A stretch of DNA of 64,000 nucleotides from Aggregatilineales bacterium (GCA_038248285.1 JBBRTY010000001.1:5766-69765); one strand, 5' to 3'. Counted from the stretch's first letter, positions 18,630-33,003 are shown. The notes: a model not told the origin generated them from the sequence alone. Numbers and translations are program-made.

Positions 18630-19769
18630 ATGACACCCGTTTCATCTGATGCGCAAGGTGCTAAAGCTAGGTTTATCTCTATTCGTATCAAGTTGGCTTT
18701 TGGCTTTGGTCTCGCCTTTACGCTCATTTTTGCGGCAATCTTCTACTGGTTCTATGGTTTTAGCATCAATGTCGCGCGCACGCAAATTGGGGAATCCCTT
18801 GTCGATGTCCTCACTGCCACAGCGCTTAAAATCGACGGTGATGTTATTGTGGATCTTTATAACAACTCCGAACCGACGCTCTATGATGATCGCAACGACG
18901 AGGACCCCGATAACGATGTTTATTTCACTGATGACCCTCGTTTTTGGGAAATTGCCCAGTTTCTCTATAGCGTTCGTGAGCTAAACCAACACGCATTTCA
19001 TTATATCTACGTTGCCAGCACAGACCCCGAAGACGAAAATGATTTCTACTACGTCATTGATGGCTTAGCCCTTGAAGACCCACTCCCAGAATGGATGGTC
19101 AGCTTCAAAGAAGGGGACGTGACAGACAGCGGCTTGATCCTGCGCGGGTTGGATGGCACAGTGACCGGTCTAAACAACCCCTACGAATGGCGCGATGAGT
19201 GGTGGGTTTCGGGCTATACACCGATTTATAATGCGCAAGGGCAAGTGGTCGCGGGTCTCGGTGTCGATTATCTAGCGGGCTACCTGCGCGAGGTTGAACG
19301 CAACATCCTCACCGTTGCCCTGCCGGTCGTTACGGTGACTTTTGCGGTCATGTCTGCGTTGGTCTTCTTCGTCTCCAGCTTTATCAGCGCGCCTTTGATC
19401 AGGCTTTCCGTCGTTGCCGAAGAATACGGTGAAGGGCATTACGATGCTGTACTCAATGCGGAACCCAACACCTCCTTCCCCGATGAAGTCACCACCCTGC
19501 AAACAAACTTGGTGCGCATGGCGGACAAGATCGCTCAGCGCGAAATTAAACTCAAGCAAGAAGTCGAAGAGTTGCGTATTCAGATCGACCATTCTCGCCG
19601 TGATGAACAAGTCAAAGAGATCGTTGACGATGATTTCTTCCAACAATTGCAATCACGCGCCGGACAACTCCGCGCGCGCCGCAAGAGCGAAGCAAATGAC
19701 GACTCTGCCAAAGGTATCTCCGGTATCTCCACGACCGATACTGCCAATACTGAGAAAGACCGCCTATGA
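18630..19769 (+). CDS. Membrane protein with Cache-like extracytoplasmic domain, HAMP-like linker and C-terminal coiled coil; no output domain
   Basis: TM1 is IKLAFGFGLAFTLIFAAIFYWF. An acidic extracytoplasmic domain of about 190 aa ends in WWVSGYTPIYNAQGQVVAGLGVDY (Cache-like). TM2 is followed by APLIRLSVVAEEYGEGHYD (HAMP-like), then the heptad-rich REIKLKQEVEELRIQIDHSRRDEQ. GGAG lies 9 nt upstream of the ATG. Confidence 0.5.
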   Translation: MTPVSSDAQGAKARFISIRIKLAFGFGLAFTLIFAAIFYWFYGFSINVARTQIGESLVDVLTATALKIDGDVIVDLYNNSEPTLYDDRNDEDPDNDVYFTDDPRFWEIAQFLYSVRELNQHAFHYIYVASTDPEDENDFYYVIDGLALEDPLPEWMVSFKEGDVTDSGLILRGLDGTVTGLNNPYEWRDEWWVSGYTPIYNAQGQVVAGLGVDYLAGYLREVERNILTVALPVVTVTFAVMSALVFFVSSFISAPLIRLSVVAEEYGEGHYDAVLNAEPNTSFPDEVTTLQTNLVRMADKIAQREIKLKQEVEELRIQIDHSRRDEQVKEIVDDDFFQQLQSRAGQLRARRKSEANDDSAKGISGISTTDTANTEKDRL

Positions 19770-21115
19770 CGCCACCTCATTCCCATGTCCCCATTGTAGC
19801 GATTTGCAATATCGCTGAAGCCTTTTATGATTTTCTGATTAGGGTGCCCGATTCAGACTCCCATCTCAAGGGCGAAGCCTATCGCGGGGATCGCGCTATC
19901 GTCTGGATCGGTGCCGCCAAACTGGTGATCACCAGTTTGGCGATCCCGCATGAGCCGTATCTCAAACAGCACGCGGGCTATACGGGCACGCGCTCGACCA
20001 GACCCGCCACCAATAGCCATCTGCTCTGCAAAGATATCGCCAACGATCCAGCGGTACTGGCTGAGATCGTCCAATTTGCCGGAGCAGGTGCTACCATTCA
20101 GGTGGCACCCTATGCTGCCACGCGCGAATTTTACGATCTGGTAGACCTGCTGCGTACCGACTATCACCTCACCGTGCTGTTGGCAGACACCAACGAGCGC
20201 GATCACATGTGGGTGCGCGATTACATCGACACCAAAGCCGGTTTTAGGGTTCTCACCGCACGCTGGTTGCCCAATGCCGAAGACTTGCTCTTAGAAGGCA
20301 TCGTCTGCCCCAACAAAGCCGAAGCCGCCCAAGTAGCCCATTGGTTTATCAATCGTGGTCAGGCGTGCATCGTCAAAAATGATATTGGGGAAAATGGCTT
20401 TGGCAATGTCATCATCCGCCCCTCTGAGTTTGCCGACAAAGCCGCTATTCTCGATCACCTCAATGCCTCCACCGTGTTGGGGGTGCCGCCACTCACAGTA
20501 GAAGCGCTCGTCGCAAATATCGGCACTAGTTCCCCATCCTTTGAGGCGTTTGTCCCGCCAATAGGGCAAGGCGCACCCTATTTGACCTACGTCTCGGATC
20601 AACTGTTTCACGGATTTGGCGATTTTTGCGGCGTGGTCATCGGTCATGAACTGACCGAGCGCGCATGGTACCCCACTTTGGTAGAGAGCGGTCTCCGCAT
20701 CGCCCAAGGCTTACAAAAGATGGGCTATGTCGGCTTTTTTGACCTAGACGCCATCTGCGACGCCGATGATCGGATTTATTTACTAGAGGTCAACACCCGC
20801 AGGACAGGGGGCACCCATACCCACGACTTCGCCCACTTCTTCTTTGGTGCCGATTACCTGAGCCGCGTCACCCTGTTAAGCGACGATACCTTGTCCAGCA
20901 GCGGCATCCAAGACGTAAACCTGCTCCACGAGGCAGCAAGTGCGTTACGCTATCCTATTGGCGATGAAGAACGCGGCATCTTCATTACCGGCACGTCCGC
21001 GCTCGAACGTGATGAATTCGGCGTGATCATTGTCGGGCGCGACACTGCCGATTGCGTCGCCCTACAAAGCACCCTCGTCGCAACAGTAGCGCGTTTCGCC
21101 AATACCCAAAAATAA
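19766..21115 (+). CDS. ATP-grasp fold ligase with pre-ATP-grasp N-domain (function unknown)
   Basis: 449 aa. GYVGFFDLDAICDADDRIYLLEVNTRRTGGTH carries the ATP-grasp Mg-binding E-x-N motif, with CIVKNDIGENGFG upstream. The start overlaps the stop of the Cache/HAMP gene (ATGA). Confidence 0.55.
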   Translation: MTPPHSHVPIVAICNIAEAFYDFLIRVPDSDSHLKGEAYRGDRAIVWIGAAKLVITSLAIPHEPYLKQHAGYTGTRSTRPATNSHLLCKDIANDPAVLAEIVQFAGAGATIQVAPYAATREFYDLVDLLRTDYHLTVLLADTNERDHMWVRDYIDTKAGFRVLTARWLPNAEDLLLEGIVCPNKAEAAQVAHWFINRGQACIVKNDIGENGFGNVIIRPSEFADKAAILDHLNASTVLGVPPLTVEALVANIGTSSPSFEAFVPPIGQGAPYLTYVSDQLFHGFGDFCGVVIGHELTERAWYPTLVESGLRIAQGLQKMGYVGFFDLDAICDADDRIYLLEVNTRRTGGTHTHDFAHFFFGADYLSRVTLLSDDTLSSSGIQDVNLLHEAASALRYPIGDEERGIFITGTSALERDEFGVIIVGRDTADCVALQSTLVATVARFANTQK

Positions 21116-21201: not shown

Positions 21202-23010
21202 CTACACAGTTTCGCTGGTGGGCATGTCCTCTTCCGGTTCTTCCACAAATTGCCGGCGATAGAGCTGGGCATAGAGACCGTTGAGCGCCAACAATTCCTC
21301 GTGATTGCCCTGTTCCACGATCTCGCCCAAGCGCATCACCAAAATACGATCCACTTCGCGGATGGTGCTTAAACGGTGCGCAATCACAATACTGGTGCGC
21401 CCCTGCAAAATCCGATGTAAGCCCGTCTGAATCGCTTCTTCTGTTTCGGTATCAATATTACTGGTCGCCTCGTCCAGCACGAGGATGCTATGGGGGTGAT
21501 GCAGCAACGCCCGCGCCAGCGCAATGAGTTGCCGTTGCCCCTGCGACAAGTTCGCCCCGCCCGGCATCAGCATCGTATCGTATAACTGCGGTAAGCGCTC
21601 AATGAACCCATTAGCACACGCTGTTTTCGCCGCCTCGATCACTTTCGCACGCGGGATTGAGTCATCGAATAAGCTGATATTTTCGGCAATCGTGCCTGTG
21701 AAACAATAGGGATTCTGCGGCACCACCGTCACCGAATGGCGCAAATCATCATTCGACAGATCGCGCACATCAAAACCACCGATACGCACGCTCCCCTCGG
21801 TCACATCATAAAACCGCCCCACCAGCCCCGCCAAAGACGTTTTGCCCGCGCCTGTCGCCCCTACAACCGCGACACGTTGCCCCATCGGGATGACCAAATC
21901 CAAATCATGAATGACGGGATGCCCGTTCTCATACCCAAACGTCACTTCATCAAATTCCACCGTCAGCGTTTGCACTGTCGGCTTCACCGGGTGATTTGCT
22001 TGTACAACTTCCGGTTCGACATGCAGCATTCGCGCGATTCGTTCGCCCGCCGATAGCGCCGTCTGAATCTGCGCGATCTGTTCTGATAAGCTCACAATCG
22101 GCTCAAACATGCGTCGGGTATACTCGACAAACGAGATCAACATCCCCAACGTCGCCCATCCCATCAACACGCCTTGCCCGCCCCCATACAGCACAAAGGC
22201 TAAGCCAATGGTGGTCAAAATTTGTAGCACCGAGGCGTAACGAGTGTATTGGTCGCGCAGCAAAGTGTGGACTTCGCGGTATTCAAGATTCTTTTGGTTA
22301 AACCCTTCGCGGCTGATGGGCTGGCGGTTGAAAAGCTGCACGATCAACATGCCACCAAACTGCTCGTTGATGTATGACAGTGTTTCTGCCACGACCCGAT
22401 GATAACGCCCCGAAGACTCGCGTAGGCGCTTGCGGAAGTAAATCGTCATGTAAATCATCACAGGCAAAACGATAAAGCTGATCAACGCCAAACGCCAATT
22501 GATCAGCAGCATCGCCACGATAATGCCGACCAAAGTCATCATGTTGCTTGCCACCATCACGATACTGGTGGACATCAGTTCGGTCAGGGCTTCGATGTCA
22601 TTAGACATGCGCGCCACCAATTGACCGACAGGCGTCACGTTGAAGAAGCGCATATCTTGACGCATAATGTGCGCGAACAAGGTCCGCCGCAAATCCAGCA
22701 GCGCATTTTGTCCAACGGTCTGCAACAAATAGATATACCCAAAACGCAAGACGAAAATTGTGATCACCACCACAAAATAAGCGATACCAAACGGAATCAC
22801 CTGATTGATATCACCACTCGTGATCGGTCCATCCACGACCAACTGAATCAGATAAGGCAGCACGACAGACAATACCGAAACTGCCAGCAAGCCCACAAAG
22901 ACGATCCCGATCTGGAGTTTGTAGGGGGATAAAAATTGCCCCAACATGCGCAGTAGGTAGCGATCGGTGATAGATTCCTGTTGCAACTCAGTCGCAGTGA
23001 GTCGTTTCAT
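21202..23010 (-). CDS. ABC exporter, fused TMD-NBD half-transporter (MsbA/MdlB type), subunit 2
   Basis: Six TM helices, Walker A GATGAGKTS, signature LSQGQRQ and Walker B ILVLDEATS. The ATG at 23010 lies 4 nt after the upstream stop. The ORF-track TTG at 23040 would overlap the upstream gene. Confidence 0.9.
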   Translation of the reverse strand: MKRLTATELQQESITDRYLLRMLGQFLSPYKLQIGIVFVGLLAVSVLSVVLPYLIQLVVDGPITSGDINQVIPFGIAYFVVVITIFVLRFGYIYLLQTVGQNALLDLRRTLFAHIMRQDMRFFNVTPVGQLVARMSNDIEALTELMSTSIVMVASNMMTLVGIIVAMLLINWRLALISFIVLPVMIYMTIYFRKRLRESSGRYHRVVAETLSYINEQFGGMLIVQLFNRQPISREGFNQKNLEYREVHTLLRDQYTRYASVLQILTTIGLAFVLYGGGQGVLMGWATLGMLISFVEYTRRMFEPIVSLSEQIAQIQTALSAGERIARMLHVEPEVVQANHPVKPTVQTLTVEFDEVTFGYENGHPVIHDLDLVIPMGQRVAVVGATGAGKTSLAGLVGRFYDVTEGSVRIGGFDVRDLSNDDLRHSVTVVPQNPYCFTGTIAENISLFDDSIPRAKVIEAAKTACANGFIERLPQLYDTMLMPGGANLSQGQRQLIALARALLHHPHSILVLDEATSNIDTETEEAIQTGLHRILQGRTSIVIAHRLSTIREVDRILVMRLGEIVEQGNHEELLALNGLYAQLYRRQFVEEPEEDMPTSETV

Positions 23011-23014
23011 CCCA

Positions 23015-24862
23015 TTAACTTGAGGACCGGACGCGCTCAACTTCTTCCTCCATCACTGGCTCTGCTTCTGACACCGCAGCATCGACACGGCTATCCCCAC
23101 GTTCACGGGCTGCCATGTGCGCATAAACCCCTTGTTGAGCGATCAAAGCGGCATGGGTGCCTGATTCCACGATCTGCCCATCATCCATCACCAAAATCAA
23201 ATCACAATCTTTCACCGTCGAAATCCGGTGCGCGATGATCAAACTGGTACGCGCTTGCAAAACCGCACGCATATCATGCAGGATGTCAGCCGCAGTGCGC
23301 GTATCCACGCTCGATAGGGCATCATCCAAAACTAAAATCGCTGGGTCGCGCACAATCGCACGCGCGATAGCGACACGCTGCTTTTGCCCGCCGCTCAGCA
23401 TCACGCCTTTTTCGCCAACCAGCGTGTCCATGCCGTGTGGAAGCTGTGCCAAATCATTGCTCATGCGCGAGATATGCGCAGCACGAGACAATTCTTCGTC
23501 AGTAGCTTCGCGCTTGCCCATACGAATATTTTCGCTCAGCGGTGCGCTGAACAAAAAGGTCGATTGCGGTACATAAGCAATCGCCCGCCGCAAATCTTCT
23601 AAGTCCAGTGTCCGCACATCATGTCCATCGACCAAAACGCGCCCCTCGGATGGGTCAAGAACACGCGCGATCAAACTGACCAGTAGCGTCTTGCCGCAAC
23701 CAGTCGGACCAATGATGCCGACGACCGTCCCTGCGGGGATATCAAGGCTGACGTTGCTGAGCAAGGTCGTCCCTTCCATTTCGACGCTGACATGCTCAAA
23801 GCGCAAATCCCCGTGCGGCGCTGGCAATGGAACAGCATCAGGTAATGAAGCGACCTGTGTCGGTTGGATCAACACGGTTAACCTTGTCAGCGCCCCGCGT
23901 GTCTGTTGGTAGCGTTGATAGGTCATGCCAAGTTGCAACAGCGATTGGCTGATCCAACCAAGATAAAGCAAAAACTGGGTGAAATTGCCGAGCGTAAATG
24001 TCCCTTGCACCGCCAAAATCCCGCCAAACAAGACCACCACGCCCATCGTGGATTGGCTGATCATATTCGGCAACATGCCCACCGGTTCGTTGCGTCGTTT
24101 GAAGAATAACCAACGCCGTCGATATTCGATATTTTCGGCAGCGAAACGGGCGTTGATGCTATCTTCACGTCCGAAGGTCTTGATTGTTTGAACACCGCTG
24201 ATGGCATCTTGCACCAACGACGCCATTTTTCCCGCTTGATCTTGAACCTGCTCAAACATCGGTGTGAGCGCAGCCCCCGCCCGAATTTGAAACGTCGTCG
24301 ACACCAGCAGCACCACAAACACTAATGCCGTTAGAGGCAAGTTGACGAACGCCAACAGGACAAAGATTACTAATAGGTTGAAAGAGGCACTGAAGGCGCG
24401 ATTAAACCCAATCGCCAACAACCGCCAAATCATCTCAGTATCGCTGTGGATGCGTGAAATCAGATCGCCAATCGCTTGGCGTTGATAAAAACTATTGTCT
24501 AGTCTCAGCAAGTTTTCGTATAAGTCTCGGCGGATATCGTAATTGACCGCATAAGCGATGTTGCCGCTAAAGTGGCGCATCCCAAAAAACGCAACAATCG
24601 CTATGATAGCAATACCGATCATGAGCGCGATGTCGCCCCACATTTGATCAAAACGAACCCCTTGCTGAACATGATCGATGATCACACCGATGACAAAAGG
24701 TTCCGCAGCGGTCGCAATACCGCCCACCACACCTGTGAAGAACGCCCCCACCGCGTCCCATCGATGGCGCATAATATACGCCCACAACCATCTCATATCC
24801 GCAACCGGCACCTGAACTTCATTCGAAGCGCCAGACACCACAACCCCCGCGAGATCACTCAC
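23015..24862 (-). CDS. ABC exporter, fused TMD-NBD half-transporter, subunit 1
   Basis: Walker A GPTGCGKTL, signature LSGGQKQR and Walker B ILVLDDALS. I place the start at GTG 24862, preceded by AGGAGTGAGG (rc of 24869-24878). The ORF-track start at 24943 reads through a 30-bp palindrome and is unlikely. Confidence 0.9.
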   Translation of the reverse strand: MSDLAGVVVSGASNEVQVPVADMRWLWAYIMRHRWDAVGAFFTGVVGGIATAAEPFVIGVIIDHVQQGVRFDQMWGDIALMIGIAIIAIVAFFGMRHFSGNIAYAVNYDIRRDLYENLLRLDNSFYQRQAIGDLISRIHSDTEMIWRLLAIGFNRAFSASFNLLVIFVLLAFVNLPLTALVFVVLLVSTTFQIRAGAALTPMFEQVQDQAGKMASLVQDAISGVQTIKTFGREDSINARFAAENIEYRRRWLFFKRRNEPVGMLPNMISQSTMGVVVLFGGILAVQGTFTLGNFTQFLLYLGWISQSLLQLGMTYQRYQQTRGALTRLTVLIQPTQVASLPDAVPLPAPHGDLRFEHVSVEMEGTTLLSNVSLDIPAGTVVGIIGPTGCGKTLLVSLIARVLDPSEGRVLVDGHDVRTLDLEDLRRAIAYVPQSTFLFSAPLSENIRMGKREATDEELSRAAHISRMSNDLAQLPHGMDTLVGEKGVMLSGGQKQRVAIARAIVRDPAILVLDDALSSVDTRTAADILHDMRAVLQARTSLIIAHRISTVKDCDLILVMDDGQIVESGTHAALIAQQGVYAHMAARERGDSRVDAAVSEAEPVMEEEVERVRSSS

Positions 24863-24928
24863 GACAGACCTCACTCCTAAACTTACAATTTGCATTGAGA
24901 GAGTGTGAAGTGTACCCGAAAATCTAAG

Positions 24929-24958
24929 ACCATTACAGACCAATTGGTCTGTAATGGT
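24929..24958. promoter_or_regulatory. Perfect 30-bp palindrome upstream of the ABC exporter genes (operator or hairpin)
   Basis: ACCATTACAGACCAA|TTGGTCTGTAATGGT, perfectly self-complementary, 67-96 nt upstream of the GTG at 24862. On the minus strand it is followed by CTTAGATTTTCGG, so it could also act as an intrinsic terminator or attenuator. Confidence 0.4.
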
Positions 24959-25025
24959 TAATCAAAACATGCGAGTTTTTGGTGAGGGCAATAAACAGGA
25001 ATGGGATTCGACTGACAAGGATTGG

Positions 25026-25055
25026 GCAGGGGTGCCCTTAGGGAAGCACCCCTGC
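25026..25055 (-). terminator. GC-rich hairpin 15 nt downstream of the permuted ATP-grasp gene
   Basis: GCAGGGGTGCCC / GGG..GCACCCCTGC form a stem of about 10-13 bp. There is no clear U-tract, so function (terminator versus processing or stability element) is uncertain. Confidence 0.3.
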
Positions 25056-25069
25056 ATAGTGAAAAAAGC

Positions 25070-26425
25070 TTAAAAATCTTTCCGCTCAATCAAAAAAGCA
25101 GGCACCAACGAGCCGCCCCCTGCCGTGACATTCAAAAGCGATACCGACGACAAACGGGTCAAGCATCCATGCACCGTGCGGCCATAGAAGACATAAGGAT
25201 CGGCATCCACATGACGGGCGCTGATATCCAACTGCCCATCCACCCACGAGGGAAACTCGCGCGTGATCGACTCCACCCGTTCTTGCACCACAAAAGGTTC
25301 AGTCAACGCATGTTGTAGGGCGCTACTCCAGTTCTCTGCTTCACATTCCCACCCCAAAACCACGCCTTTACCGCCGTATTCGTCATTCGGCTTTAACACC
25401 AGTCGGTCGCGATGATCGGTCACAAAAGTGAGCAAATCCACCTGCTGCCCCTCATACTCGGTTTTGCGGTCGCTTACCAAACGTGTCCATGGGATATGCA
25501 GCGCAATTGCCTGCTGCTGTTCCGGCGTGAACAAATGCGCATTCCGCTCATCACTGATAAAGGCAAAACTGGCTTTCTTCGCCATCAGCTTGCAACTGAA
25601 CGAATTAGTTAAGAAAACGGCATGGTCACGATATGCCTGTACAATCGGGTTATCGACACCCATCCTGTGAATCAATTCACTGATGAGGACGCGCTTGTAG
25701 ATCACATCAATTTTCCGACTGCCTGCCCATAATGCGCCGTTCCGATATTCGACTGCCCGCGGATCAATCAGAAAAGACGAGGTACCCGCCCGCTCAAACG
25801 AAAATCGGCTGATCTCGTGTTCATTCAGCGTCGGCACATCTTGCCAATCCATGATGGCGATTTGCGGGTTGGCGGCAGTCCCGCCCCAATCGCGATACCC
25901 TTGCAACAACGCCTTTAATAGCTCCGCCAACAAGGGCATGGATTGAACATGGTAATTTGTCTCAAATCGCTTCATCGGTTCAAGTCCGTGAAACAGATCA
26001 TTGAGGACATCGCCATAGCCCATGCCAGCGGGCGTTTCGGCATTATATTCGACAAATTGGAGGATACCGTCATCAGCTCGAAAAAAAGAGTCGAGGCGCG
26101 AAGTCGTCCACGGGATGGCACCGCCGATATCGAGGCTAAATAACTGCTCTTCGTAAGCCTCCAACGATAACTGCTGACGCAGTTCTGGGCTATATAAACA
26201 TGCCTCGTGCGCACGGCTAAAAGCACCAAGCAAAATTTCTGTCTCTTGTTTCAGATATGCCCATTGATCGGTGAAATAGAAATGGGGACGCAACACGGTA
26301 CAGATCGGGCGGTTGCCAAAGTAGAGACCCAGCTTGTGCAGCATACTCCGCATTTCGCCATCAGTATCCGCCGCGATCTGATCATTCAGCAGTTCATGAT
26401 AAATCTCTATCGCCTCGCGCAGCAT
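25070..26425 (-). CDS. Circularly permuted type-2 ATP-grasp protein (COG2308-like)
   Basis: 451 aa. The C-terminal part LVLKPNDEYGGKGVVLGWE...PFVVQERV...RHVDADPYVFYG...CLTRLSS..LLNVTAGGGSLVPAFL follows the pattern of COG2308 proteins as I recall it (LKPv.gsGG.G...G....aQ......R.vDlRPf....v.v.pGGLTRva...s..vN.sqGGGsKDtwV). Confidence 0.65.
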   Translation of the reverse strand: MLREAIEIYHELLNDQIAADTDGEMRSMLHKLGLYFGNRPICTVLRPHFYFTDQWAYLKQETEILLGAFSRAHEACLYSPELRQQLSLEAYEEQLFSLDIGGAIPWTTSRLDSFFRADDGILQFVEYNAETPAGMGYGDVLNDLFHGLEPMKRFETNYHVQSMPLLAELLKALLQGYRDWGGTAANPQIAIMDWQDVPTLNEHEISRFSFERAGTSSFLIDPRAVEYRNGALWAGSRKIDVIYKRVLISELIHRMGVDNPIVQAYRDHAVFLTNSFSCKLMAKKASFAFISDERNAHLFTPEQQQAIALHIPWTRLVSDRKTEYEGQQVDLLTFVTDHRDRLVLKPNDEYGGKGVVLGWECEAENWSSALQHALTEPFVVQERVESITREFPSWVDGQLDISARHVDADPYVFYGRTVHGCLTRLSSVSLLNVTAGGGSLVPAFLIERKDF

Positions 26426-26437
26426 GAAGGTTCCCTT

Positions 26438-27427
26438 CTACTTGGTGTTTCCCTGTGAATCAAGCTCCTGCGCAAGCCGTCCCCACTCATACCGTGTCCG
26501 CGTTTGGGCGGCAGGTTCAAGGGCATAGCCGATACAAACATCCGCCATCGTCTTGACCATCCAATCGAAATGCCCGCGCCCCAACGAATGGGTATCCATA
26601 TCCGGCGCTGGATTCATGAAGTCAATGGCATAAGGCACACCACCCTTGATCGCAAATTCGACAGCATTCATATCGTACCCAAAAGCACGATTCAGCTTAA
26701 GGGTTGATTCGACCATCAAATTCACCAATGCCGGATCAAAATCATGCTCCGGCAAATAATTATTGCCGTACACCGGACGGGGGGTGTATTTCATGACATG
26801 GACATGTTGCTGCCCCAGCCCCATACAACGCCCATAATTGTCCCATTGAATGAACTCTTGCAAGATCATCGTCAGCAGTCCACTATCGTTGTACTTCTCA
26901 AAAAGCTCATCCCACGAATGGACGATATGCACCGCTTTCCACCCGCCGCCATGCGCATCCTTCAACACCAGCGGGAACCCTCCCAGATATTCGACGATAT
27001 CGCTCCATGGCACGGGATAAAGCAGGTTGCGCAAACTCTCTTCATGGACGATGCCGGGCACATATTCCTTATTGGGCAATACCACCGTCTTGGGGTGGGT
27101 AATCCCCATCTTGTCCAGCAAGGATGCCCCAAAATACTTATCGTCACTCGTCCACATAAACGGATCGTTGATGACCTTACAGCCTTGTAGCACCGCATTC
27201 TTGAGGTAACTGCGATAGTAGGGAACTTCGTGCGAAATCCGATCCACAATCACCCGATACGGCGTCGGTTCATTCATGCGCGTGCCGCCGATACTCACAT
27301 ATTCGGCAATCACCCCCGTGTCCTTCGTCCGACGGTTAACTTCATCAATAAAGGCGGGGGGCCACGACCATTCACGCCCGACAAACACGCCCACCCGCTT
27401 CAACCCTGTATCCACCTGATTTGTCAT
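26438..27427 (-). CDS. ATP-grasp ligase (RimK/GshB-sized), specificity unknown
   Basis: Motifs FPLVLKDAHGGGWKAVHIV, LLTMILQEFI and NAVEFAIKGGVPYAIDFMNPAPD fit the ATP-grasp fold. Start placed at MTNQV (27427), preceded by AAAGGAAG. The ORF-track start is 17 codons upstream. Confidence 0.6.
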   Translation of the reverse strand: MTNQVDTGLKRVGVFVGREWSWPPAFIDEVNRRTKDTGVIAEYVSIGGTRMNEPTPYRVIVDRISHEVPYYRSYLKNAVLQGCKVINDPFMWTSDDKYFGASLLDKMGITHPKTVVLPNKEYVPGIVHEESLRNLLYPVPWSDIVEYLGGFPLVLKDAHGGGWKAVHIVHSWDELFEKYNDSGLLTMILQEFIQWDNYGRCMGLGQQHVHVMKYTPRPVYGNNYLPEHDFDPALVNLMVESTLKLNRAFGYDMNAVEFAIKGGVPYAIDFMNPAPDMDTHSLGRGHFDWMVKTMADVCIGYALEPAAQTRTRYEWGRLAQELDSQGNTK

Positions 27428-27501
27428 GATGCTTCCTTTATCCATAAAGGCGCACAGGCGTACAACCTGTGCGCGCAAGCGCTCAATCGATCAAATAACC
27501 A

Positions 27502-28224
27502 TTAATCATGCCCGAAGATATACTTCGGCACTACGCGCTGCCAGTAGGGCCAATCATGAATCCAGCCGTCCCATTCTCGCAAAGCATTGCCGATTCCTTT
27601 ATTCCACAACATGCCGCTAAAGTCGCGTGTCCATTGCAATTGCGGATCACCCTTACCCGCCACAAGGATAATATCTTGCCGGCGCATCGCTTCTAGGCGA
27701 CCCCAATCATGTTCGTTCGGGACAAACTGCATGGGGTTGTACTGATAGACCATCTCGTCGCTGTACCCCCCCGTGAAGCTGCGAATATCATATAAACCGC
27801 AAATCCCAATCATGCGCTGAACCTCATGCGGGTAGCGGAGCGCAAAGCCAGCGGCATGGTACGCCCCAAACGAAGCGCCCATCGTCATCGTGAAGGGGTT
27901 CTGATTCTTCCAGCGCATAAAGGGCAATACTTCATTGTGCAGGTATTGAAAATACAAGTGATGCCGATACGCCCGTCCGCCCGGATGCGCCCACCAAGCG
28001 TACCAAGTTTCCTCGTCAATGGCGTCCACACAAAATGCTTGCAACCATCCCCGTTCCAGCGGTTCGCGCAGCGCATCCCACATCATGCTCCGGTCTTCCC
28101 ATTCGTAATAACGCCCTTTGGAAGTCGGGAAGATGATGACCTTCGCGCCAGCATGTCCAAAAACCAATAGCTGCATATCTCGGTTAAGCGTCGGGCTGTA
28201 CCAACGATGATGTTCTCGATTCAT
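27502..28224 (-). CDS. Esterase-family alpha/beta hydrolase (GxSxG)
   Basis: MNREHHRWYSPTLNRDMQLLVFGHAG...TMGASFGAYHAAGFALRYP contains a GASFG nucleophile elbow, typical of the putative esterase family. Starting at ATG 28224 avoids the 89-nt overlap with the S8 gene implied by the ORF track. Confidence 0.65.
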   Translation of the reverse strand: MNREHHRWYSPTLNRDMQLLVFGHAGAKVIIFPTSKGRYYEWEDRSMMWDALREPLERGWLQAFCVDAIDEETWYAWWAHPGGRAYRHHLYFQYLHNEVLPFMRWKNQNPFTMTMGASFGAYHAAGFALRYPHEVQRMIGICGLYDIRSFTGGYSDEMVYQYNPMQFVPNEHDWGRLEAMRRQDIILVAGKGDPQLQWTRDFSGMLWNKGIGNALREWDGWIHDWPYWQRVVPKYIFGHD

Positions 28225-28243
28225 GTTGACCTTTGACCTTTGT

Positions 28244-29398
28244 TTATGCGCCAATTTTGGCGGCACGCAAGGCGGCATCGACTGCCGCAGTGGGGTGAAT
28301 AGCGCCAGCCCCCTGTTGATGACGTGGGACATTCGACAATGGGGTGGCAGTCGCCATTAAGATGGAACGAATCTCAGTCGGCGTCAAACTGGGATTCGCC
28401 TCGATAAGTTGCGCGACGACCGACGTCACGATTGCCGCCGCGACCGAAGTGCCATCCACATGTTGGTGTCGCGCATCGATCAATTTGTGTCCATTAATGC
28501 GTGCTTGCAGGGTGGCATACAAACGAGCATCAGGACGTTGCGTTTGTTCGCGCGGCAACCCCAAATCGCCATAACCGCTCATCAGTAATTTCTTGAGCGC
28601 CCGCTCGCCTTCCGTTTCCAACAAGGGGCCAAGCCAATACGCCTCACGATCTACCGAAGAACCGGGCAAGATCGGCGAAGCGATCCACCGTGCTGGGGCG
28701 ACCACATCTGGTTTCTCGCTACCGTCTGTGGCGCATCCATAATTGCTATGAAAACCCATCCAGCGCGACCGGTCGGCGGTGTTGCCATCGTCATAGCCCC
28801 CCACCGTAATCGCCTCGGCAGCACTGGCAGGGGGCAGTATCTCGCCCACCCCACGATTGCCCGATGCGGCGATCACCGTCATACCCATCGCCGTCAAACG
28901 AGCGACAGCTTTGTGCAAAGGGTGTTCGGGATCGGTGCTGACGTAATCACCGCCGACCGACAAATTGACGACACGCACGCCGAAACGTCGCCCCGCATCC
29001 ATCAACCAGCGCAACCCCCGCAAAATATCTCGCTCTTTGACGTGACCGCGAGGCGTACTCACCTTGATCAACACGACCGACGCCGCCGACGCAATACTCC
29101 GATAACGCCCGCCCGACACCGCGCCATCCCCACACGCGATTACACTGGTCATCTGCCCATGCCAACTCAGATCGTCCACTTCCTGCACAGTCGGTTGCTC
29201 CACCACATGCTGCGTCGAAGCATCGACATGTATGAGAATGCGCCCCTTGAGATCAGGGTGCATATAAAAACCAGAGTCGACAAAGGCGACCACCACGCCG
29301 CGTCCCGCATAATTCGGCAGTGCCCCCAACCGTTCCGGCGTGGAAAGGAGCGTCGGCGCAACAAAATCATCGTGTGGAAAATTTGAGTGAAAGATCAT
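28244..29398 (-). CDS. S8 family subtilisin-like serine peptidase, no signal peptide visible
   Basis: Catalytic triad contexts are VVAFVDSGF (Asp), HGQMTSVIACG (His) and DGTSVAAAIVTSVVAQL (Ser). The N-terminus MIFHSNFPHDDFVAPT is not hydrophobic, which suggests a cytoplasmic location. Confidence 0.85.
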   Translation of the reverse strand: MIFHSNFPHDDFVAPTLLSTPERLGALPNYAGRGVVVAFVDSGFYMHPDLKGRILIHVDASTQHVVEQPTVQEVDDLSWHGQMTSVIACGDGAVSGGRYRSIASAASVVLIKVSTPRGHVKERDILRGLRWLMDAGRRFGVRVVNLSVGGDYVSTDPEHPLHKAVARLTAMGMTVIAASGNRGVGEILPPASAAEAITVGGYDDGNTADRSRWMGFHSNYGCATDGSEKPDVVAPARWIASPILPGSSVDREAYWLGPLLETEGERALKKLLMSGYGDLGLPREQTQRPDARLYATLQARINGHKLIDARHQHVDGTSVAAAIVTSVVAQLIEANPSLTPTEIRSILMATATPLSNVPRHQQGAGAIHPTAAVDAALRAAKIGA

Positions 29399-29452
29399 GA
29401 CGATACGGTACTCGATGCTGAAGTCTCAGCCATAAAAACCACGAAAACAGAT

Positions 29453-30667
29453 TTAGCCCGTTTGCCCCGTGCGGGTCGCGCCCATCGCCGCAACCGATGT
29501 CGAAAAATCCTGAACGAATCGTTCTACATATTGTCCCACCAATGCCTCAACCCGTGCCGCATCGGGCGACACCACCACCAAGACCGCATGGTAGGGTTTA
29601 TCGACACGCCAGACAACTTCGGGGTCGTTGTACGCCGACAGATCCGGGTATTGTTGTTTTGCCAAAGTCACCAAAATACCACCGTAATCCCCCCGCACCT
29701 CCGGCAACACATACGCTTGTCCCCGTAATTTGCCGATCTCTAAGCGCGCCCATTCCCGCCACAAATTGATATTCGTCGCTTGCTCAATCATATCGCTGAG
29801 GAATGCCCCCCCCACGCGCGCGGCGATCTCCAAGAAATAATATTGCCCGTCCTCGTGCGCCTTGATGAATTCGGCATGAGTCACGCCATCCACTAAGCCG
29901 AGCGCTTTGATCACCCGCTTGTTTTCGGCGATCAAGGCGACGGTATCTGCCGAGTCATGCGGCAAAATCCGCGAGTTGAACACCCCACCCCCTTGATAGA
30001 CATGCAAGGGGGGTGCGCCATATTTTTGCACGCTATTAAAAATTATTTCGCCATTGACGGTCAAGGCATCGACATGAAACACATCACCGGGGACAAATTT
30101 TTCCAGCAAATAATACGACTGCTGATCCCCCAGTTCATCCAACGCCCGCCACACCTGCTCGCTATCCGCCGTCTTGCGGATGCCCATCGATCCGGCTTCC
30201 ATACGCGGCTTCAGCACCCATGGCGCGTCCACTTGTTCCATGTAGTCCCGCAGTTGATTATAATTTTTGACCCCGATGAAGGGCGGCACCAAAATCCCGG
30301 CGGCTTGTGTCATTTGTCGCATGGTTAATTTATCGCGAAACGCCCGTGTTGCTGTGACCCCAACTCCGAGTAGGCGCAAATGCTCGCGCAAAAGCGCCGT
30401 CAACTCCACTTCAAATTCATCCAATGGCAAAATATAATCGATCACCTGCCCACGACACATCCAACTGACGGTGTGGATGACATCTTGATAGCGCCGTAAA
30501 TCGGGCACCAATTGAAGTTCATCAATACTCTCGTGGGGCCATGGTTCGTCCCGCAGGTTTTCTTGGATCAACAGAATGACTTTGCAACCGAGCGCTTTCG
30601 CGGTCTGAAGCATGACATCACCCTTGTAGGCGCTCGAAAGAAATAAAATTGTCAGGGGTTGGCTCAT
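29453..30667 (-). CDS. ATP-grasp carboxylate-amine ligase (L-amino-acid-ligase-like)
   Basis: 404 aa. Motifs PWVLKPRMEAGSMGIRK, YYLLEKFVPGDVFHVDAL and GVTHAEFIKAHEDGQYYFLEIAARVGGAFLSDM show Ddl/LAL-like ATP-grasp architecture. AAGGTGA lies about 10 nt upstream. Confidence 0.75.
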   Translation of the reverse strand: MSQPLTILFLSSAYKGDVMLQTAKALGCKVILLIQENLRDEPWPHESIDELQLVPDLRRYQDVIHTVSWMCRGQVIDYILPLDEFEVELTALLREHLRLLGVGVTATRAFRDKLTMRQMTQAAGILVPPFIGVKNYNQLRDYMEQVDAPWVLKPRMEAGSMGIRKTADSEQVWRALDELGDQQSYYLLEKFVPGDVFHVDALTVNGEIIFNSVQKYGAPPLHVYQGGGVFNSRILPHDSADTVALIAENKRVIKALGLVDGVTHAEFIKAHEDGQYYFLEIAARVGGAFLSDMIEQATNINLWREWARLEIGKLRGQAYVLPEVRGDYGGILVTLAKQQYPDLSAYNDPEVVWRVDKPYHAVLVVVSPDAARVEALVGQYVERFVQDFSTSVAAMGATRTGQTG

Positions 30668-31037
30668 CGTTATTACATCACCTTACGCTCGTGGCGAATC
30701 TCCTTAAGAATATATCAAGAAATGTCCCTCTTGCCTAATTCAAATGACATTCATTCTCCTTATTTAGAGGCATTAACGTCTAGCGTTCCAAGCAGAGTTC
30801 CGTTATAGTAGACATGTTGCCGATTTTTCATTCAATAAGCTATCCATAATCTGCACATGATCAGCCCTAAAGTTTTCTCATTATTTTACGTCGCCGTCAT
30901 TTGCGCCGTTGTAATGCGCTACTTTCGTCGCTTACTAGCCCTCATAAAATCCCAACCAATATCCATCTACTCAAATCGACAAAGCAGACTACACTTCTGA
31001 AACACACATCCGCTCAACAATCGTTAAGGACTCCACT

Positions 31038-31493
31038 GTGAACCGCGCTCAACAATTTGTGCTGGCACAATTCGCACTTTTCGCGCTTTTTGGCATCGGC
31101 TTTATCCTGTTGCCCTTCACTCTCGGCGGCGATCTCCGCTGGATGGGTGGTGTGCTGATCGTCATCGGCGGGGTGATCTTGGCACTCGCCATTTACGAAC
31201 ACAATGTCCGCAATCAAGCCTTGCCCAACATCGAACCCACCCCCAATCAAAAAGTCGCGTTGATCGACTCTGGTCTTTATAGCCAGATTCGCCACCCCAT
31301 CTATACCGCCGTCTTGACCGTCGCCTTCGGCATTGCGCTATTTCACGGGCATATCGCGTTACTCGCGCTGGCGTGCGGCATGGTCATTTTCTTCACCTAC
31401 AAGTCGATGTATGAGGAAACTTTATTGACCCAAGCGTATAGCAAGTATGAAGAATATGTGAAACATACTGGGCGGTTCTTGCCATTTCTATAG
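31038..31493 (+). CDS. Isoprenylcysteine carboxyl methyltransferase (ICMT/PEMT) family membrane protein
   Basis: 151 aa with 4 TM helices. The motif LIDSGLYSQIRHPIYTAVL and the C-terminal E..L...Y..Y matches the ICMT/phospholipid methyltransferase signature. GTG start with AAGGA 7 nt upstream. Confidence 0.7.
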   Translation: MNRAQQFVLAQFALFALFGIGFILLPFTLGGDLRWMGGVLIVIGGVILALAIYEHNVRNQALPNIEPTPNQKVALIDSGLYSQIRHPIYTAVLTVAFGIALFHGHIALLALACGMVIFFTYKSMYEETLLTQAYSKYEEYVKHTGRFLPFL

Positions 31494-31854
31494 ATTTGCG
31501 GTGTAATCTGTATGGGGGTGGTTTCTCATCAGCAGCATCCACCCTTTCACTCTTAATATTGGTGACTACTCAGGTATAGAAACAGAATAAAATAAATAGG
31601 GAGGCATGAAGACGTGAAGAAAAACAGGAAAATACCCCTCGAAACGTGGATGTAGGAGTGGATTAGGCGCTTGTCAATCGTTCGTTAACATGAAGGTTTG
31701 TGCGCCGATCCCACCCATTTACCGCCAATGGTCATTTCTTCCTTTATTACCGACCGTTTTTCAGCCTGAGCAGTTACTAATATTGTTTCATTTTTCTGAA
31801 TCCAATTCTCATCAACCCAAGTTTTTATCCAATCATCTTAAGGAGCAACTCATC

Positions 31855-32931
31855 ATGAATGTGCCCACACTTCCGGGAATCACAGCCCAAACTGTGACGA
31901 CTTCTCGTTTGACGACGCGCGTGCTGTTCAGCGGGCAAAACGACGCCACAGCTGTGCTGTTCTTGCATGGTAACGCCTCGTCTGCCACCTATTGGGAAGA
32001 GACCATGCTGGCATTGCCCAATGGCTATCGCGCCATCGCTCCCGACCACCGCAATTACGGCGATGCCGACCCATCCGTGAAAATCGATGCGACGCGCGGC
32101 ATGGGCGATATCGCCGACGATGCGATTGCGCTTCTTGATCATCTCGACATCGCTCGTGTTCATGTCGTCGGGCATTCTATGGGTGGATCGATTGTTTGGC
32201 GATTGTTGATGGATCACCCCACACGCTTCATCAGCGCCACCGTCGCGGCACCCGGTTCCCCTTATGGCTATGGCGGCACCAAAGACCTCGCAGGTACCCT
32301 TAATTTTGACGACGCCGCTGGCTCTGGCGGTGGAATCGTTAACCGCGACTTTGCCGCACGTATTGCTGCTGGCGATACCAGCAACGACAACCCCGGCAGT
32401 GCCCCGCGTGTGGTCATGAACCAATTTTATTGGAAACCCCCCTTTGTGCCTGCGCGTGAGGAAGACCTGTTGCTCTCGCTGTTATCCACCCACATTGGCG
32501 ACCAAAATTATCCCGGCGATAGCGTCGCTTCTCCCAATTGGCCCTTTGCCGCCCCTGGCGTCTTTGGTCCCTCCAATGCTTTATCGCCCAAATATGCGGG
32601 GGATGTGACCCGCCTCTTTGCCATTGATCCCAAGCCGCCGATTTTGTGGGTACGCGGTGCGGACGATCAAATCGTCGGTGACATGTCCTTATTCGATGTC
32701 GGCACGCTCGGCGCACTCGGCTATATGCCCATTCCCGGCTATCCCGGCACCGATGTCTTCCCGTCCCAGCCGATGGTTGGGCAAACGCGCGCCGTGTTGG
32801 AGCAATACAAAGTGAGCGGCGGACACTATACTGAAGTTGTGTTCGAAAATTGTGGACACACTCCTTACTTAGAGCGGTTCGAGGAGTTCAATAGTCTCCT
32901 CGCTCAGTTCATCGGGGGAAATCGTGGGTAA
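31855..32931 (+). CDS. Alpha/beta-fold hydrolase
   Basis: LFLHGNASSATYWE (oxyanion HG), VVGHSMGGS (GxSxG nucleophile) and a C-terminal CGHTPYLE (His). Start moved to ATG 31855, with AAGGAG 9 nt upstream. The ORF-track start at 31690 adds 55 non-homologous residues. Confidence 0.75.
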   Translation: MNVPTLPGITAQTVTTSRLTTRVLFSGQNDATAVLFLHGNASSATYWEETMLALPNGYRAIAPDHRNYGDADPSVKIDATRGMGDIADDAIALLDHLDIARVHVVGHSMGGSIVWRLLMDHPTRFISATVAAPGSPYGYGGTKDLAGTLNFDDAAGSGGGIVNRDFAARIAAGDTSNDNPGSAPRVVMNQFYWKPPFVPAREEDLLLSLLSTHIGDQNYPGDSVASPNWPFAAPGVFGPSNALSPKYAGDVTRLFAIDPKPPILWVRGADDQIVGDMSLFDVGTLGALGYMPIPGYPGTDVFPSQPMVGQTRAVLEQYKVSGGHYTEVVFENCGHTPYLERFEEFNSLLAQFIGGNRG

Positions 32932-33003
32932 TCCGGGGCATGATATCCCCGTTAGCGTTACCATTTAGTGAATTTTTCACTGCTACCTTTTAGGAGTTTT
33001 TTC

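Follow-up and report, generated by a model that had tools for sequence, protein, structure and literature searches.

A conserved cassette of ATP-grasp ligases and serine hydrolases in an Aggregatilineales bacterium, a candidate uncharacterised amide-ligation system

Genes and features of the locus

The window analysed here is a stretch of 64,000 nucleotides from an Aggregatilineales bacterium (GCA_038248285.1 JBBRTY010000001.1:5766-69765). Five adjacent minus-strand ORFs, 30667-25070, encode in order LAL, S8, Est, RimKl and CPAG; S8 and Est are serine hydrolases, and the other three are ATP-dependent ligases that form amide bonds. Two hairpins and a pair of ABC exporter halves follow. In a preliminary description of this DNA, the genes had been positioned and assigned to superfamilies; all ORFs were recovered there on the minus strand, and the family assignments hold.

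29453..30667, minus strand: LAL, an L-amino-acid-ligase-like ATP-grasp of 404 aa, the operon's first gene
28244..29398, minus strand: S8, a cytoplasmic subtilase of 384 aa, without signal peptide or prodomain
27502..28224, minus strand: Est, an alpha/beta hydrolase of 240 aa, probably from the PF00756 esterase family, core component
26438..27427, minus strand: RimKl, a 329-aa ATP-grasp ligase from a large family without a Pfam model, core component
25070..26425, minus strand: CPAG, a circularly permuted type-2 ATP-grasp of 451 aa, 12 nt past RimKl, core component
25026..25055, minus strand: GC-rich 12-bp hairpin right after the CPAG stop codon, without a T-tail, unique in the window
24929..24958, minus strand: 13-bp perfect hairpin followed by CTTAGATTTT, top match of the terminator scan, unique in the window
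23015..24895, minus strand: ABC_A, a half-transporter exporter (TMD-NBD), with an alternative GTG start at 24862 after AGGAG
21202..23040, minus strand: ABC_B, a second half-transporter, overlapping ABC_A by 26 nt

LAL matches Pfam ATP-grasp_4 (1.2e-10), and its closest solved relatives are the L-amino-acid ligases 4wd3 (E 2.8e-21), which we take to be RizA of rhizocticin, and 3vot (1e-11). It scores below all curated equivalog cut-offs (BacD 33.8 against 850 bits, DdaF 31.4 against 840, Ddl 41 against 243-246), and it alone scores with the cyanophycin synthetase models TIGR02068 and NF010623, at 24.8 and 25.2 bits against 850 and 877. S8 matches Peptidase_S8 at 6.4e-37 (127.9 bits against a cut-off of 21.8), with the triad D41/H80/S318 and N181 invariant in 26 orthologues; its N-terminus shows no hydrophobic signal-like stretch, in agreement with the earlier view of a subtilase lacking a signal peptide. 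Among the PADLOC defence models, S8 received a generic subtilase match, while none was obtained for the ligases or Est. Est, whose start is the same in an independent gene call on identical metagenome contigs, is a putative GxSxG esterase as previously proposed, with a GASFG nucleophile elbow containing S118, as well as D193 and H223, all invariant in 32 orthologues. Its family profile finds the PDB esterases 5vol (4e-10) and 6vh9 (1e-6), the latter presumably FphF. The window protein lies just under the PF00756 cut-off (20.6 against 22), and a Cryomorpha orthologue, 37% identical, lies above it (36.3).

RimKl has no Pfam match, and its family comprises more than 8000 clusters at 90% identity, none of them named; 266 representatives reach E<=1e-30. 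Modelled with AlphaFold2 (pLDDT 88), RimKl adopts an ATP-grasp fold whose near neighbours are Ddl, ArgX/LysX and RimK, with Foldseek E values of 1e-14 to 1e-12 to Ddl, ArgX and RimK at TM ~0.6 and identity of at most 18%, and PsnB stands behind these at rank 32 (TM 0.54). Residues K156, E191, D252 and N272 are invariant; the predicted fold and the conserved ATP- and Mg-binding residues place RimKl in the ATP-grasp superfamily. Its weak named matches are all glutamate ligases, namely RimK, LysX, CofF and MptN, and it stays under the curated family cut-offs (TIGR00768 29 against 143.4 bits, LysX 22.7 against 275.6). Moreover, many Bacteroidota homologues carry AT-hook repeats, KAP-rich H1-like tails or helix-hairpin-helix (HhH_5) domains, which suggests a nucleic-acid-associated macromolecular target; the window RimKl has no DNA-binding tail.

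CPAG passes the cut-off of Pfam PF14403 CP_ATPgrasp_2 (43.3 bits against 32), and its homologues are precomputed to the same family. No variation is seen in the motifs VEYNAETP and LKPNDEYGG or in a glycine-rich loop. The sole PDB sequence relative is 3n6x, a solved COG2308-type protein, which matches residues 322-437. The AlphaFold2 model, of moderate confidence (pLDDT 79), has as Foldseek neighbours the eukaryotic glutathione and homoglutathione synthetases, trypanothione and glutathionylspermidine synthetases, YgiC, and Cp1B, the ATP-grasp of the E-64 pathway (PMC12568646). With eukaryotic-type glutathione synthetase it shares the permuted fold (Foldseek E 4e-12, TM ~0.6) at 13% identity, and no Pfam or NCBIfam glutathione-synthetase model is matched, apart from one that gives 16 bits where 408 are required. 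CPAG relatives are encoded in 594 species, and CPAG is at most 25% identical to plasmid-borne members of its family. Judging from its sequence, CPAG represents a divergent subfamily of the COG2308-type ATP-grasps.

The two structured elements noticed earlier between CPAG and ABC_A are both real, and the region folds at z = -4.7 relative to shuffles. The hairpin at 24929..24958, for which Rfam gave no match, separates the ligase operon from ABC_A and is terminator-like, although it may instead be an operator. Both ABC proteins have ABC_membrane and ABC_tran domains and no N-terminal C39 peptidase domain, the mark of peptidase-containing bacteriocin exporters (PCATs); the bacteriocin_ABC and NHLM models scored below their cut-offs, and ABC_B has a partial score of 394 bits with a cyanophycin-associated ABC family, for which the cut-off is 880. 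ABC_A lies downstream of CPAG only in loci L001-L003 and L005 of the synteny set, with 1.3-5.6 kb of inserted DNA in three. The exporter pair had been counted as part of the operon, a view that is not borne out, since it lies past the terminator-like hairpin and only the closest relatives have it next to the operon; ABC_A and ABC_B are lineage-specific neighbours outside the conserved cassette.

The surrounding window is ordinary chromosome, with genes for 2-oxoglutarate dehydrogenase, RecD2, sugar-nucleotide enzymes and a Liv-type importer. Because a convergent 449-aa protein is a PGM1/BesA-like ATP-grasp, there are indeed four ATP-grasp genes within ~11 kb, as first counted; the fourth, however, belongs to a separate convergent operon (g441-HAMP-AG449) and not to the cassette.

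Conservation and variants of the cassette

A set of 80 related loci was used for synteny. The order LAL-S8-Est-RimKl-CPAG is found in 29 of them, whereas the flanking genes of the window are common to three loci at most, and dozens of Chloroflexota have the five-gene operon, of which other bacterial phyla carry modified versions. Along these loci, the median intergenic gaps are 77, -2, 77 and 6.5 nt, which fit a predicted single operon spanning 30667-25070. Adjacency and order are kept across at least four phyla while the flanks change, and cassette identity across phyla is 50-80%. The arrangement is therefore not attributable to chance, since the gene order recurs across many species with differing flanks. 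Although ordinary chromosomal surroundings might suit a fortuitous juxtaposition of unrelated housekeeping genes, conserved order, operon-like spacing and the failure of any gene to reach a housekeeping cut-off leave that explanation next to no credence, and the synteny data refute it.

The components are not equally constant. Est occurs in 59 of the 80 loci and also in Bacteroidota loci, S8 in 43 of the 80 and LAL in 37. The conserved core is Est and RimKl, usually with CPAG, while LAL is an accessory ligase, dispensable in many versions, and S8 an accessory hydrolase. In Gemmatimonadota and Bacteroidota, LAL and S8 are replaced beside the core by a YbdK-type carboxylate-amine ligase and a C26/GATase hydrolase. 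This GCS2 ligase scores 522-537 bits with NF010039 (cut-off 371), and the C26 protein has its best named match in the gamma-glutamyl-GABA hydrolase family. By these comparisons, the Chloroflexota operon is a lineage variant of a multi-phylum cassette. The context had been called novel, which holds in that it is uncharacterised but not in the sense of unique.

COG2308 permuted ATP-grasps usually share operons with COG2307 (alpha-E), COG1305 (transglutaminase-like) and Anbu (PMC3235984). As first reported for alpha-E and transglutaminase, such partners are missing: none of the three was found in the Pfam-scanned ORFs of the window (12.5-37 kb contiguous, plus scattered ORFs elsewhere) or among the conserved neighbour clusters of the 80 loci. 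The two systems are alike in that CPAG passes PF14403 and both are uncharacterised combinations of ligase and hydrolases (PMC3235984), but the partners of CPAG are Est, RimKl, and LAL or GCS2.

The proposal of an uncharacterised conserved amide-ligation system is thus upheld by a gene order kept in many relatives and by ATP-grasps that all stay below curated housekeeping cut-offs (RimK 29 against 143 bits, Ddl 41 against 243-246, CphA 25 against 850, GshB-like 16 against 408). The cassette matches no characterised pathway. A literature search found no publication on it, and an earlier in-silico account of a related neighbourhood may exist.

Possible functions of the cassette

Generally, ATP-grasp enzymes activate a carboxylate as an acyl-phosphate, which is then joined to an amine. 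From their conserved ATP- and Mg-binding motifs, each ligase of the cassette would form an amide in this way. The reading tentatively favoured here, though somewhat short of probable, is that the cassette builds, step by step and without the ribosome, a short peptide or peptide-amine conjugate, perhaps with glutamate in it, and that dedicated hydrolases trim it or turn it over. A dipeptide may first be made by LAL, or a gamma-glutamyl amide by the YbdK-type GCS2 ligase in other phyla; CPAG may then add an amino acid or polyamine to the free carboxylate, as glutathione synthetase and GspS would suggest, and RimKl, by comparison with its nearest named relatives, may add one or more residues, possibly glutamate. 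This would yield, in the cytoplasm, a short non-ribosomal peptide or peptide-amine conjugate, which the serine hydrolases Est and S8, and elsewhere C26/GATase, could trim, mature or recycle. In several distinct arrangements (L001-5, L007-16, L021, L057 and L075), a heterodimeric ABC exporter is encoded close to the cassette, and export through the neighbouring pair is possible, outside the conserved design. Of the oligopeptide assembly with export first suggested, assembly is accordingly the part retained, and export is not kept as a conserved part.

Several observations argue for peptide assembly: the recurrence of the order in 29 loci with operon-like gaps, the invariant active-site residues in S8, Est, RimKl and CPAG, the small-molecule precedents among CPAG's structural neighbours, the dipeptide-forming LALs 4wd3 and 3vot and the YbdK-type/C26 partners, the glutamate ligases that make up all the weak named matches of RimKl, and the lack of a ribosomal precursor among the 80 loci. 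On the other hand, specificities are assigned by remote similarity, at no more than 18% identity to solved structures; RimKl is equally close to the protein-modifying RimK, LysX and ArgX and to Ddl; and subtilases normally cleave polypeptides rather than tri- or tetrapeptides.

The glutathione, trypanothione and glutathionylspermidine pathways, which use GshA or GCS2, glutathione synthetase and GspS/TryS, resemble such an assembly in that successive ATP-dependent carboxylate-amine ligations yield a small peptide or peptide-polyamine. The best superpositions of the CPAG model are with eukaryotic-type permuted glutathione synthetases, GspS, TryS and YgiC, and CPAG of other phyla adjoins a GCS2-family ligase and a gamma-glutamyl-type hydrolase; GspS likewise couples a synthetase with a hydrolase. 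However, identity is ~13%, the window has LAL and S8 instead of GCS2 and C26, the cassette has the extra ligase RimKl and constant esterase-family hydrolases, and there is no thiol evidence. L-amino-acid-ligase dipeptide pathways, such as those of RizA (rhizocticin), BacD (bacilysin) and BL00235, are also comparable, for the first gene is an LAL-type ATP-grasp, the ligation would be ribosome-free and an exporter is nearby in some lineages. Nevertheless, LAL lies below the BacD and DdaF cut-offs, the cassette is without genes for unusual warhead amino acids, and antibiotic clusters are strain-specific, whereas the cassette is conserved across phyla with LAL often dispensable.

Glutamates that RimK attaches to ribosomal protein S6 are cut back by the protease RimB. 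The main alternative to peptide assembly, judged somewhat unlikely, is a comparable reversible protein modification, in which a target protein, possibly ribosome- or nucleoid-associated, would receive amino-acid tails or branches from RimKl and CPAG, and S8, Est or C26 would shorten these or take them off. Equal numbers of hydrolases and ligases fit such a cycle too, RimKl has the fold of RimK, LysX and ArgX, which act on protein C-termini, and an intact cytoplasmic subtilase is conserved alongside, with a median gap at which its stop codon overlaps the start of Est. The AT-hook, H1-like and HhH_5 tails of Bacteroidota RimKl homologues also speak for a modified macromolecule and against peptide assembly, although the window RimKl lacks one. 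An operon of ATP-grasp ligase and potentially limiting protease is a documented design, known from RimK-RimB (and RimA) (PMC10092738), and transglutaminase-like proteins and Anbu, a proteasome homologue, are operon partners of canonical COG2308 ATP-grasps (PMC3235984). Yet RimKl scores far below the RimK-family cut-off, the protease is a subtilase rather than RimB, the cassette has two or three further ligases, and no S6 link is seen. Moreover, no candidate target gene is conserved beside the cassette, the Gemmatimonadota and Bacteroidota versions do without S8, and precedents for the CPAG, LAL, GCS2, C26 and PF00756 families are mainly small-molecule.

Synthesis and mobilisation of a poly-amino-acid like cyanophycin or poly-glutamate, with RimKl making the backbone, CPAG the side-branches and the hydrolases depolymerising it, is improbable. 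Glutamate polymerisation is possible for RimK-type enzymes (PMC10375531), ligases and hydrolases are co-encoded as in cyanophycin metabolism, and the partial ABC_B score points the same way. Against this, the cyanophycin synthetase models reach 25 bits against a cut-off of 850, neither a Mur-ligase-like domain nor an S51 cyanophycinase is present, CPAG's nearest structural relatives add one residue, and the sequences give no sign of processivity.

A graspetide-like RiPP system had also been suggested, with macrocyclisation of a ribosomal precursor by the ATP-grasps, S8 as leader peptidase and Est for editing or immunity; the ABC pair would then be the exporter. As with graspetides of the microviridin and plesiocin type, RimK-like-fold ATP-grasps lie near a protease and an exporter, and PsnB appears among the RimKl neighbours. 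This reading is unsupported because there is no conserved precursor ORF, and it is very improbable. The earlier failure to find a convincing precursor is confirmed by syntenic comparison: no small ORF of 20-110 aa is conserved in or beside the cassette in the 80 loci, nor is one of 8-90 aa in the 20 loci whose regions upstream of LAL were compared, and a tiny ORF, MSFELGKRDIS, with an AGGAG site upstream of LAL is missing even in the closest relatives, L001-L003. RimKl is no nearer to graspetide ligases than to Ddl, a leader-binding specialisation is not evident, one ligase is permuted and glutathione-synthetase-like, and no NCBIfam graspetide model was matched. The ABC proteins lack the C39 domain and are not conserved partners, and sequence conservation across phyla is far above that usual in RiPP clusters.

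Implications

Returning to peptide assembly, the cassette is shared by Chloroflexota, Gemmatimonadota, Bacteroidota and others, and the combination of Est, RimKl and a CPAG-type ligase with either GCS2 and C26 or LAL and S8 might, as an unlikely but specific proposal, constitute an undescribed pathway for a small glutamyl-peptide or peptide-polyamine. If so, the product would represent a new metabolite class, which may act as a redox, stress or osmotic buffer in the manner of glutathione or glutathionylspermidine, and the pathway would include hydrolases for recycling it and, in some lineages, an export route dedicated to it.

Gene content and catalytic residues

Seven co-directional minus-strand ORFs were called from 30667 to 21202, and their coordinates match those of the preliminary description. 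Gene calls on metagenome contigs with an identical CPAG give the same starts for Est and RimKl as well. The domains of the seven ORFs were identified by Pfam and NCBIfam scans, as follows.

29453-30667, minus: LAL, 404 aa, ATP-grasp of the L-amino-acid-ligase/Ddl type
28244-29398, minus: S8, 384 aa, Peptidase_S8 subtilase (6e-37)
27502-28224, minus: Est, 240 aa, esterase-family protein with a weak PF00756/alpha-beta hydrolase score
26438-27427, minus: RimKl, 329 aa, RimK/Ddl-like ATP-grasp without a Pfam match (RimK family, 29 bits against a cut-off of 143)
25070-26425, minus: CPAG, circularly permuted type-2 ATP-grasp (PF14403, 43 bits against a cut-off of 32)
23015-24895 (or start 24862), minus: ABC_A, TMD-NBD ABC half-transporter
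21202-23040, minus: ABC_B, TMD-NBD ABC half-transporter

The superfamilies first proposed for the window genes are supported by Pfam/NCBIfam, PDB profile and Foldseek matches, and every ATP-grasp stays below the curated NCBIfam cut-offs of the housekeeping families, covering RimK, LysX, Ddl, PurK, CphA, GshB and biotin carboxylase. The N-terminus of S8 (MIFHSNFPHDDF) has no hydrophobic signal-like segment, and its triad Asp41/His80/Ser318 together with Asn181 is invariant in 26 orthologues. Also invariant are the GASFG elbow (Ser118), Asp193 and His223 of Est, the ATP-/Mg-binding residues K156, E191, D252 and N272 of RimKl, and the motifs VEYNAETP, LKPNDEYGG and a glycine-rich C-terminal loop of CPAG, which are the counterparts of the Mg/acyl-phosphate and lid elements in glutathione synthetase (hGS).

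Among characterized proteins, LAL is related to the L-amino-acid ligases 4wd3 (RizA; 2.8e-21) and BL00235 (3vot, 1e-11), and the Est family profile matched PF00756-type esterases in the PDB (5vol, ferulic acid esterases and 6vh9, FphF). The AlphaFold2 model of RimKl is a classical ATP-grasp (pLDDT 88, pTM 0.88), to which Ddl, ArgX/LysX and RimK are about equally near by Foldseek (TM 0.55-0.66, identity at most 18%); a profile search against the PDB had the same outcome. The CPAG model (pLDDT 79) matches several small-molecule carboxylate-amine ligases by Foldseek, including eukaryotic-type glutathione and homoglutathione synthetases, which are classic permuted ATP-grasps. Further matches are trypanothione and glutathionylspermidine synthetases, E. 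coli YgiC and YjfC, and Cp1B, the ATP-grasp of the fungal E-64 pathway (PMC12568646). The sole sequence relative of CPAG in the PDB is 3n6x, a structural-genomics protein.

Conservation and variants across phyla

Homologues of CPAG number in the thousands; the best 120, without exception from Chloroflexota metagenomes or MAGs, share at least 60% identity. In a scan with one genome for each GTDB species, CPAG relatives turned up in 594 species. Eighty loci were retrieved and compared by tblastn with the window proteins and by independent all-against-all ORF clustering. RimKl lies immediately 5' of CPAG in 71 of these 80 loci, and Est, S8 and LAL are present in 59, 43 and 37, respectively, many of the remaining loci being truncated contigs. 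The gene order LAL-S8-Est-RimKl-CPAG, on whose recurrence the proposal of an operon depended, is complete in 29 loci, among which CPAG identity falls as low as ~54%. Flanking genes of the window are common to no more than three loci, namely L001 (g413 and g437) and L002 and L003 (the HAMP-AG449 pair). The median gaps of 77 nt (LAL to S8), -2 nt (S8 to Est), 77 nt (Est to RimKl) and 6.5 nt (RimKl to CPAG) indicate operon-like coupling, so tight that RimKl-CPAG, Est-RimKl and S8-Est complexes are predicted. Chance juxtaposition of the cassette genes is excluded.

According to record titles, the loci belong to Anaerolineae, Aggregatilineales, Ktedonobacteria, Thermomicrobiales, Gemmatimonadaceae, Longimicrobiaceae, Rubricoccaceae, a Pleurocapsa MAG and a planctomycete. 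Identity between phyla is 50-60% for the core ligases RimKl and CPAG, as would suit a reaction under constraint and of physiological importance more than a strain-specific antibiotic. A search of annotated plasmids found no RimKl homologue and only CPAG relatives of at most 25% identity. One locus (L044; CP146239.1, 145537-166880) has the whole LAL-S8-Est-RimKl-CPAG cassette, at ~151-157 kb, on a 252-kb plasmid of Aggregatilineales bacterium SYSU G02658, a strain that is presumably cultured, since its complete-sequence record carries no MAG label. This plasmid copy is a convenient starting material for experimental work. In five Aggregatilineales loci (L008, L009, L012, L013 and L016, ~11360-11705), about 300 bp 3' of the CPAG stop are conserved and were seen as clusters of minus-strand shadow ORFs; this region, which has no counterpart in the window, may be a conserved non-coding element.

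Other lineages carry additional genes. A YbdK-type GCS2 carboxylate-amine ligase (NF010039, 522-537 bits against a cut-off of 371) is immediately 3' of CPAG in 19 loci, a peptidase C26, whose best named match is the gamma-glutamyl-GABA hydrolase family below its cut-off, is close by in 12, and 7 Gemmatimonadota-type loci encode a canonical PF00756 esterase (Est2) as a second one. The GCS2 and C26 genes are absent from the window. The following architectures were found, in addition to one planctomycete locus with CPAG-GCS2 and no RimKl.

(A) Est2-Est-RimKl-CPAG-GCS2-C26
(B) S8-Est-RimKl-CPAG-GCS2-LAL
(C) LAL-S8-Est-RimKl-CPAG, the window type
(D) C26-S8-Est-RimKl-CPAG
(E) RimKl-CPAG alone

Loci of type (E) (L039 5748-13551; also L040, L045 and L031) have an arginase/agmatinase-family gene, an NMO-like oxidoreductase and an ABC ATPase on the 5' side, and a PLP-dependent (PALP) enzyme and a methyltransferase on the 3' side; such neighbours possibly hint at amino-acid or polyamine substrates.

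The families of the two core ligases are unnamed and very large, that of RimKl having no Pfam model and over 8000 clusters at 90% identity. In a full-library HMMER search with RimKl, 1525 representatives passed E<=1e-3, of which 266 also passed E<=1e-30, and a branch 42-45% identical to RimKl leads into Bacteroidota. Three of five sampled Bacteroidota contexts, including that of cultured Cryomorpha ignava, whose Est shares 37% identity with the window Est, read Est2(-) | Est-RimKl-GCS2-GATase-X, where GATase is a hydrolase and X is a last gene of ~400 aa. X resembles the C-terminal half of CPAG weakly (hhalign E 0.014-0.025) and the acid-amine ligase YgiC at a PDB profile E of 0.35, so that its homology to CPAG is suggestive only. 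Many Bacteroidota RimKl homologues of this branch (including P0252, P0260, P0264 and P0282) have long, low-complexity C-terminal tails, in which Pfam fusion domains were not found. These tails consist of tandem AT-hook repeats (PKRRGRPAK), a KAP-rich H1-like segment, or an acidic linker with HhH_5 (H3TH-like), and suggest nucleic-acid association; the window RimKl has none of the three.

As parts are shared across phyla, the window cassette is one lineage's version of a multi-phylum cassette. What stays constant is Est and RimKl, mostly accompanied by a CPAG-type ligase; what varies is whether the fourth ligase is LAL or GCS2 and whether the second hydrolase is S8 or C26/GATase.

Exporter genes and flanking regions

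The gap between CPAG and ABC_A (125-200 nt) contains two strong hairpins, the second of which is followed by a T-rich tail and ranks first among terminator-like matches in the region. Rfam gave no match in the window at gathering thresholds and none at E<=1 in 24700-25200. The ABC pair was initially counted as part of the operon, which is not upheld: it lies beyond the terminator-like hairpin, and the only loci where it comes after CPAG are L001-L003 and L005, three of which have 1.3-5.6 kb of DNA inserted. ABC_A and ABC_B carry no C39 peptidase domain. A different ABC pair (~37% identical) with a MarR gene is divergently upstream in L007 and L009-L016, and a similar pair is co-directional upstream in L075, convergent downstream in L057 and upstream in L021. 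These several arrangements hint at a functional link to export, which they do not establish. The second hairpin corresponds to the following element.

24929-24958: perfect 13-bp palindrome (ACCATTACAGACC/GGTCTGTAATGGT) upstream of ABC_A

This palindrome could be an operator, instead of or besides a terminator. An imperfect GACCAT...ATGGTC palindrome is in the same place in L001 (11439-11470), and none recurs upstream of ABC_A in L002, L003 or L005.

On the other side of the exporter genes lies a separate convergent operon.

17128-21115, plus: g441 (no Pfam match), a HAMP-domain protein (379 aa) and AG449, a 449-aa ATP-grasp (19766-21115)

The HAMP and AG449 genes overlap by 4 nt, and AG449 is nearest to the ATP-grasp peptide ligases 8ynd, PGM1 and BesA. 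With AG449 included, the count of four ATP-grasp genes in about 11 kb is correct. The module is kept only in L002, L003 and partly L022, and does not accompany the cassette generally.

Upstream of LAL, the following divergent genes were observed.

31038-31493, plus: small PEMT/ICMT-type membrane methyltransferase, adjoining the cassette
31690-38000, plus: alpha/beta hydrolase (413 aa; weak, sub-threshold S33 aminopeptidase-like match), then a Liv-type branched-chain amino-acid ABC importer (binding protein, two ATPases, permeases)

The methyltransferase also adjoins the cassette in L001 (4110-4403), and a PEMT/ICMT-family protein (L087 1572-2321) is ~5 kb from the Cryomorpha cassette; this proximity may be coincidence. 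The hydrolase and Liv importer are syntenic only with L001. In that locus, the closest relative, two ORF fragments between methyltransferase and LAL (4612-5740, minus) resemble, by eye from their translations, a disrupted FabH-type ketosynthase; the window has nothing of the kind, so the upstream flank is not conserved.

Possible products and significance

Ribosomal precursors were sought in 20 loci among RBS-preceded ORFs of 8-90 aa upstream of LAL, and in 81 loci among ORFs of 20-110 aa outside large genes, clustered by blastp-short. No conserved small ORF was found upstream of LAL, between cassette genes or elsewhere in 80 loci; the clusters were only antisense shadows of MarR and other genes. 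Between RimKl and CPAG there is no small gene, the gaps being mostly <100 nt and the few longer ones sharing nothing. One short ORF lies near LAL in the window.

30715-30750, minus: 11-codon ORF MSFELGKRDIS with an AAGGAG site, ~50 nt upstream of LAL

This ORF is missing from the closest relatives (L001-L003), is not conserved in other loci either, and is probably not a gene, or at most a leader peptide.

The best-supported reading, held tentatively, is a ribosome-independent assembly line, whose ligases would join residues stepwise into a short peptide or peptide-amine conjugate and whose hydrolases would trim, mature or recycle the product, like the GspS amidase domain. This reading draws on the mainly small-molecule precedents in five of seven enzyme families (LAL, GCS2, GS/GspS-like CPAG, C26 and PF00756), on the absence of a precursor gene and on the pairing of GCS2 with the GS-like CPAG, which repeats the two-step logic by which glutathione is made. 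The faint named relatives of RimKl are glutamate ligases throughout, glutamate is what GCS2 enzymes activate, and gamma-glutamyl amides are what C26 enzymes cleave; we infer, rather than demonstrate, a recurring glutamate theme.

Reversible protein modification, for which RimK/RimB provides a precedent (PMC10092738), is the main alternative and is less probable. The conserved cytoplasmic subtilase S8 would suit it, as would the equal similarity of RimKl to RimK, LysX and ArgX and to Ddl, and the unexpected AT-hook, H1-like and HhH_5 tails of many Bacteroidota homologues would place its site of action at nucleic acids. Polymer synthesis is improbable, and a graspetide RiPP very improbable, given that no conserved precursor ORF was found in the 80 loci, in agreement with the preliminary description, which had seen none. 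A defence system was rejected, PADLOC returning only a generic subtilase match.

The usual context of COG2308 consists of alpha-E, transglutaminase and Anbu (PMC3235984). The window cassette differs in its partners: as first noted for alpha-E and transglutaminase, neither these nor Anbu occur in the Pfam-scanned window ORFs or among the conserved neighbours. No literature on this cassette was found, and amidoligase surveys may hold an earlier in-silico mention of a related neighbourhood. The cassette belongs among the ATP-grasp/amidoligase operons, and is real, widespread and testable in cultured carriers, namely Cryomorpha ignava and the presumably cultured Aggregatilineales SYSU G02658 (plasmid CP146239.1). 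With its product identified, thousands of genes now labelled 'hypothetical' would gain a function in groups that dominate their environments (wastewater and sediment Anaerolineae, soil Gemmatimonadota, and aquatic Saprospiraceae and Flavobacteriia). Moreover, the cassette would enlarge the toolbox of ribosome-independent peptide ligases and could illuminate the long-orphan permuted ATP-grasp family COG2308/PF14403.
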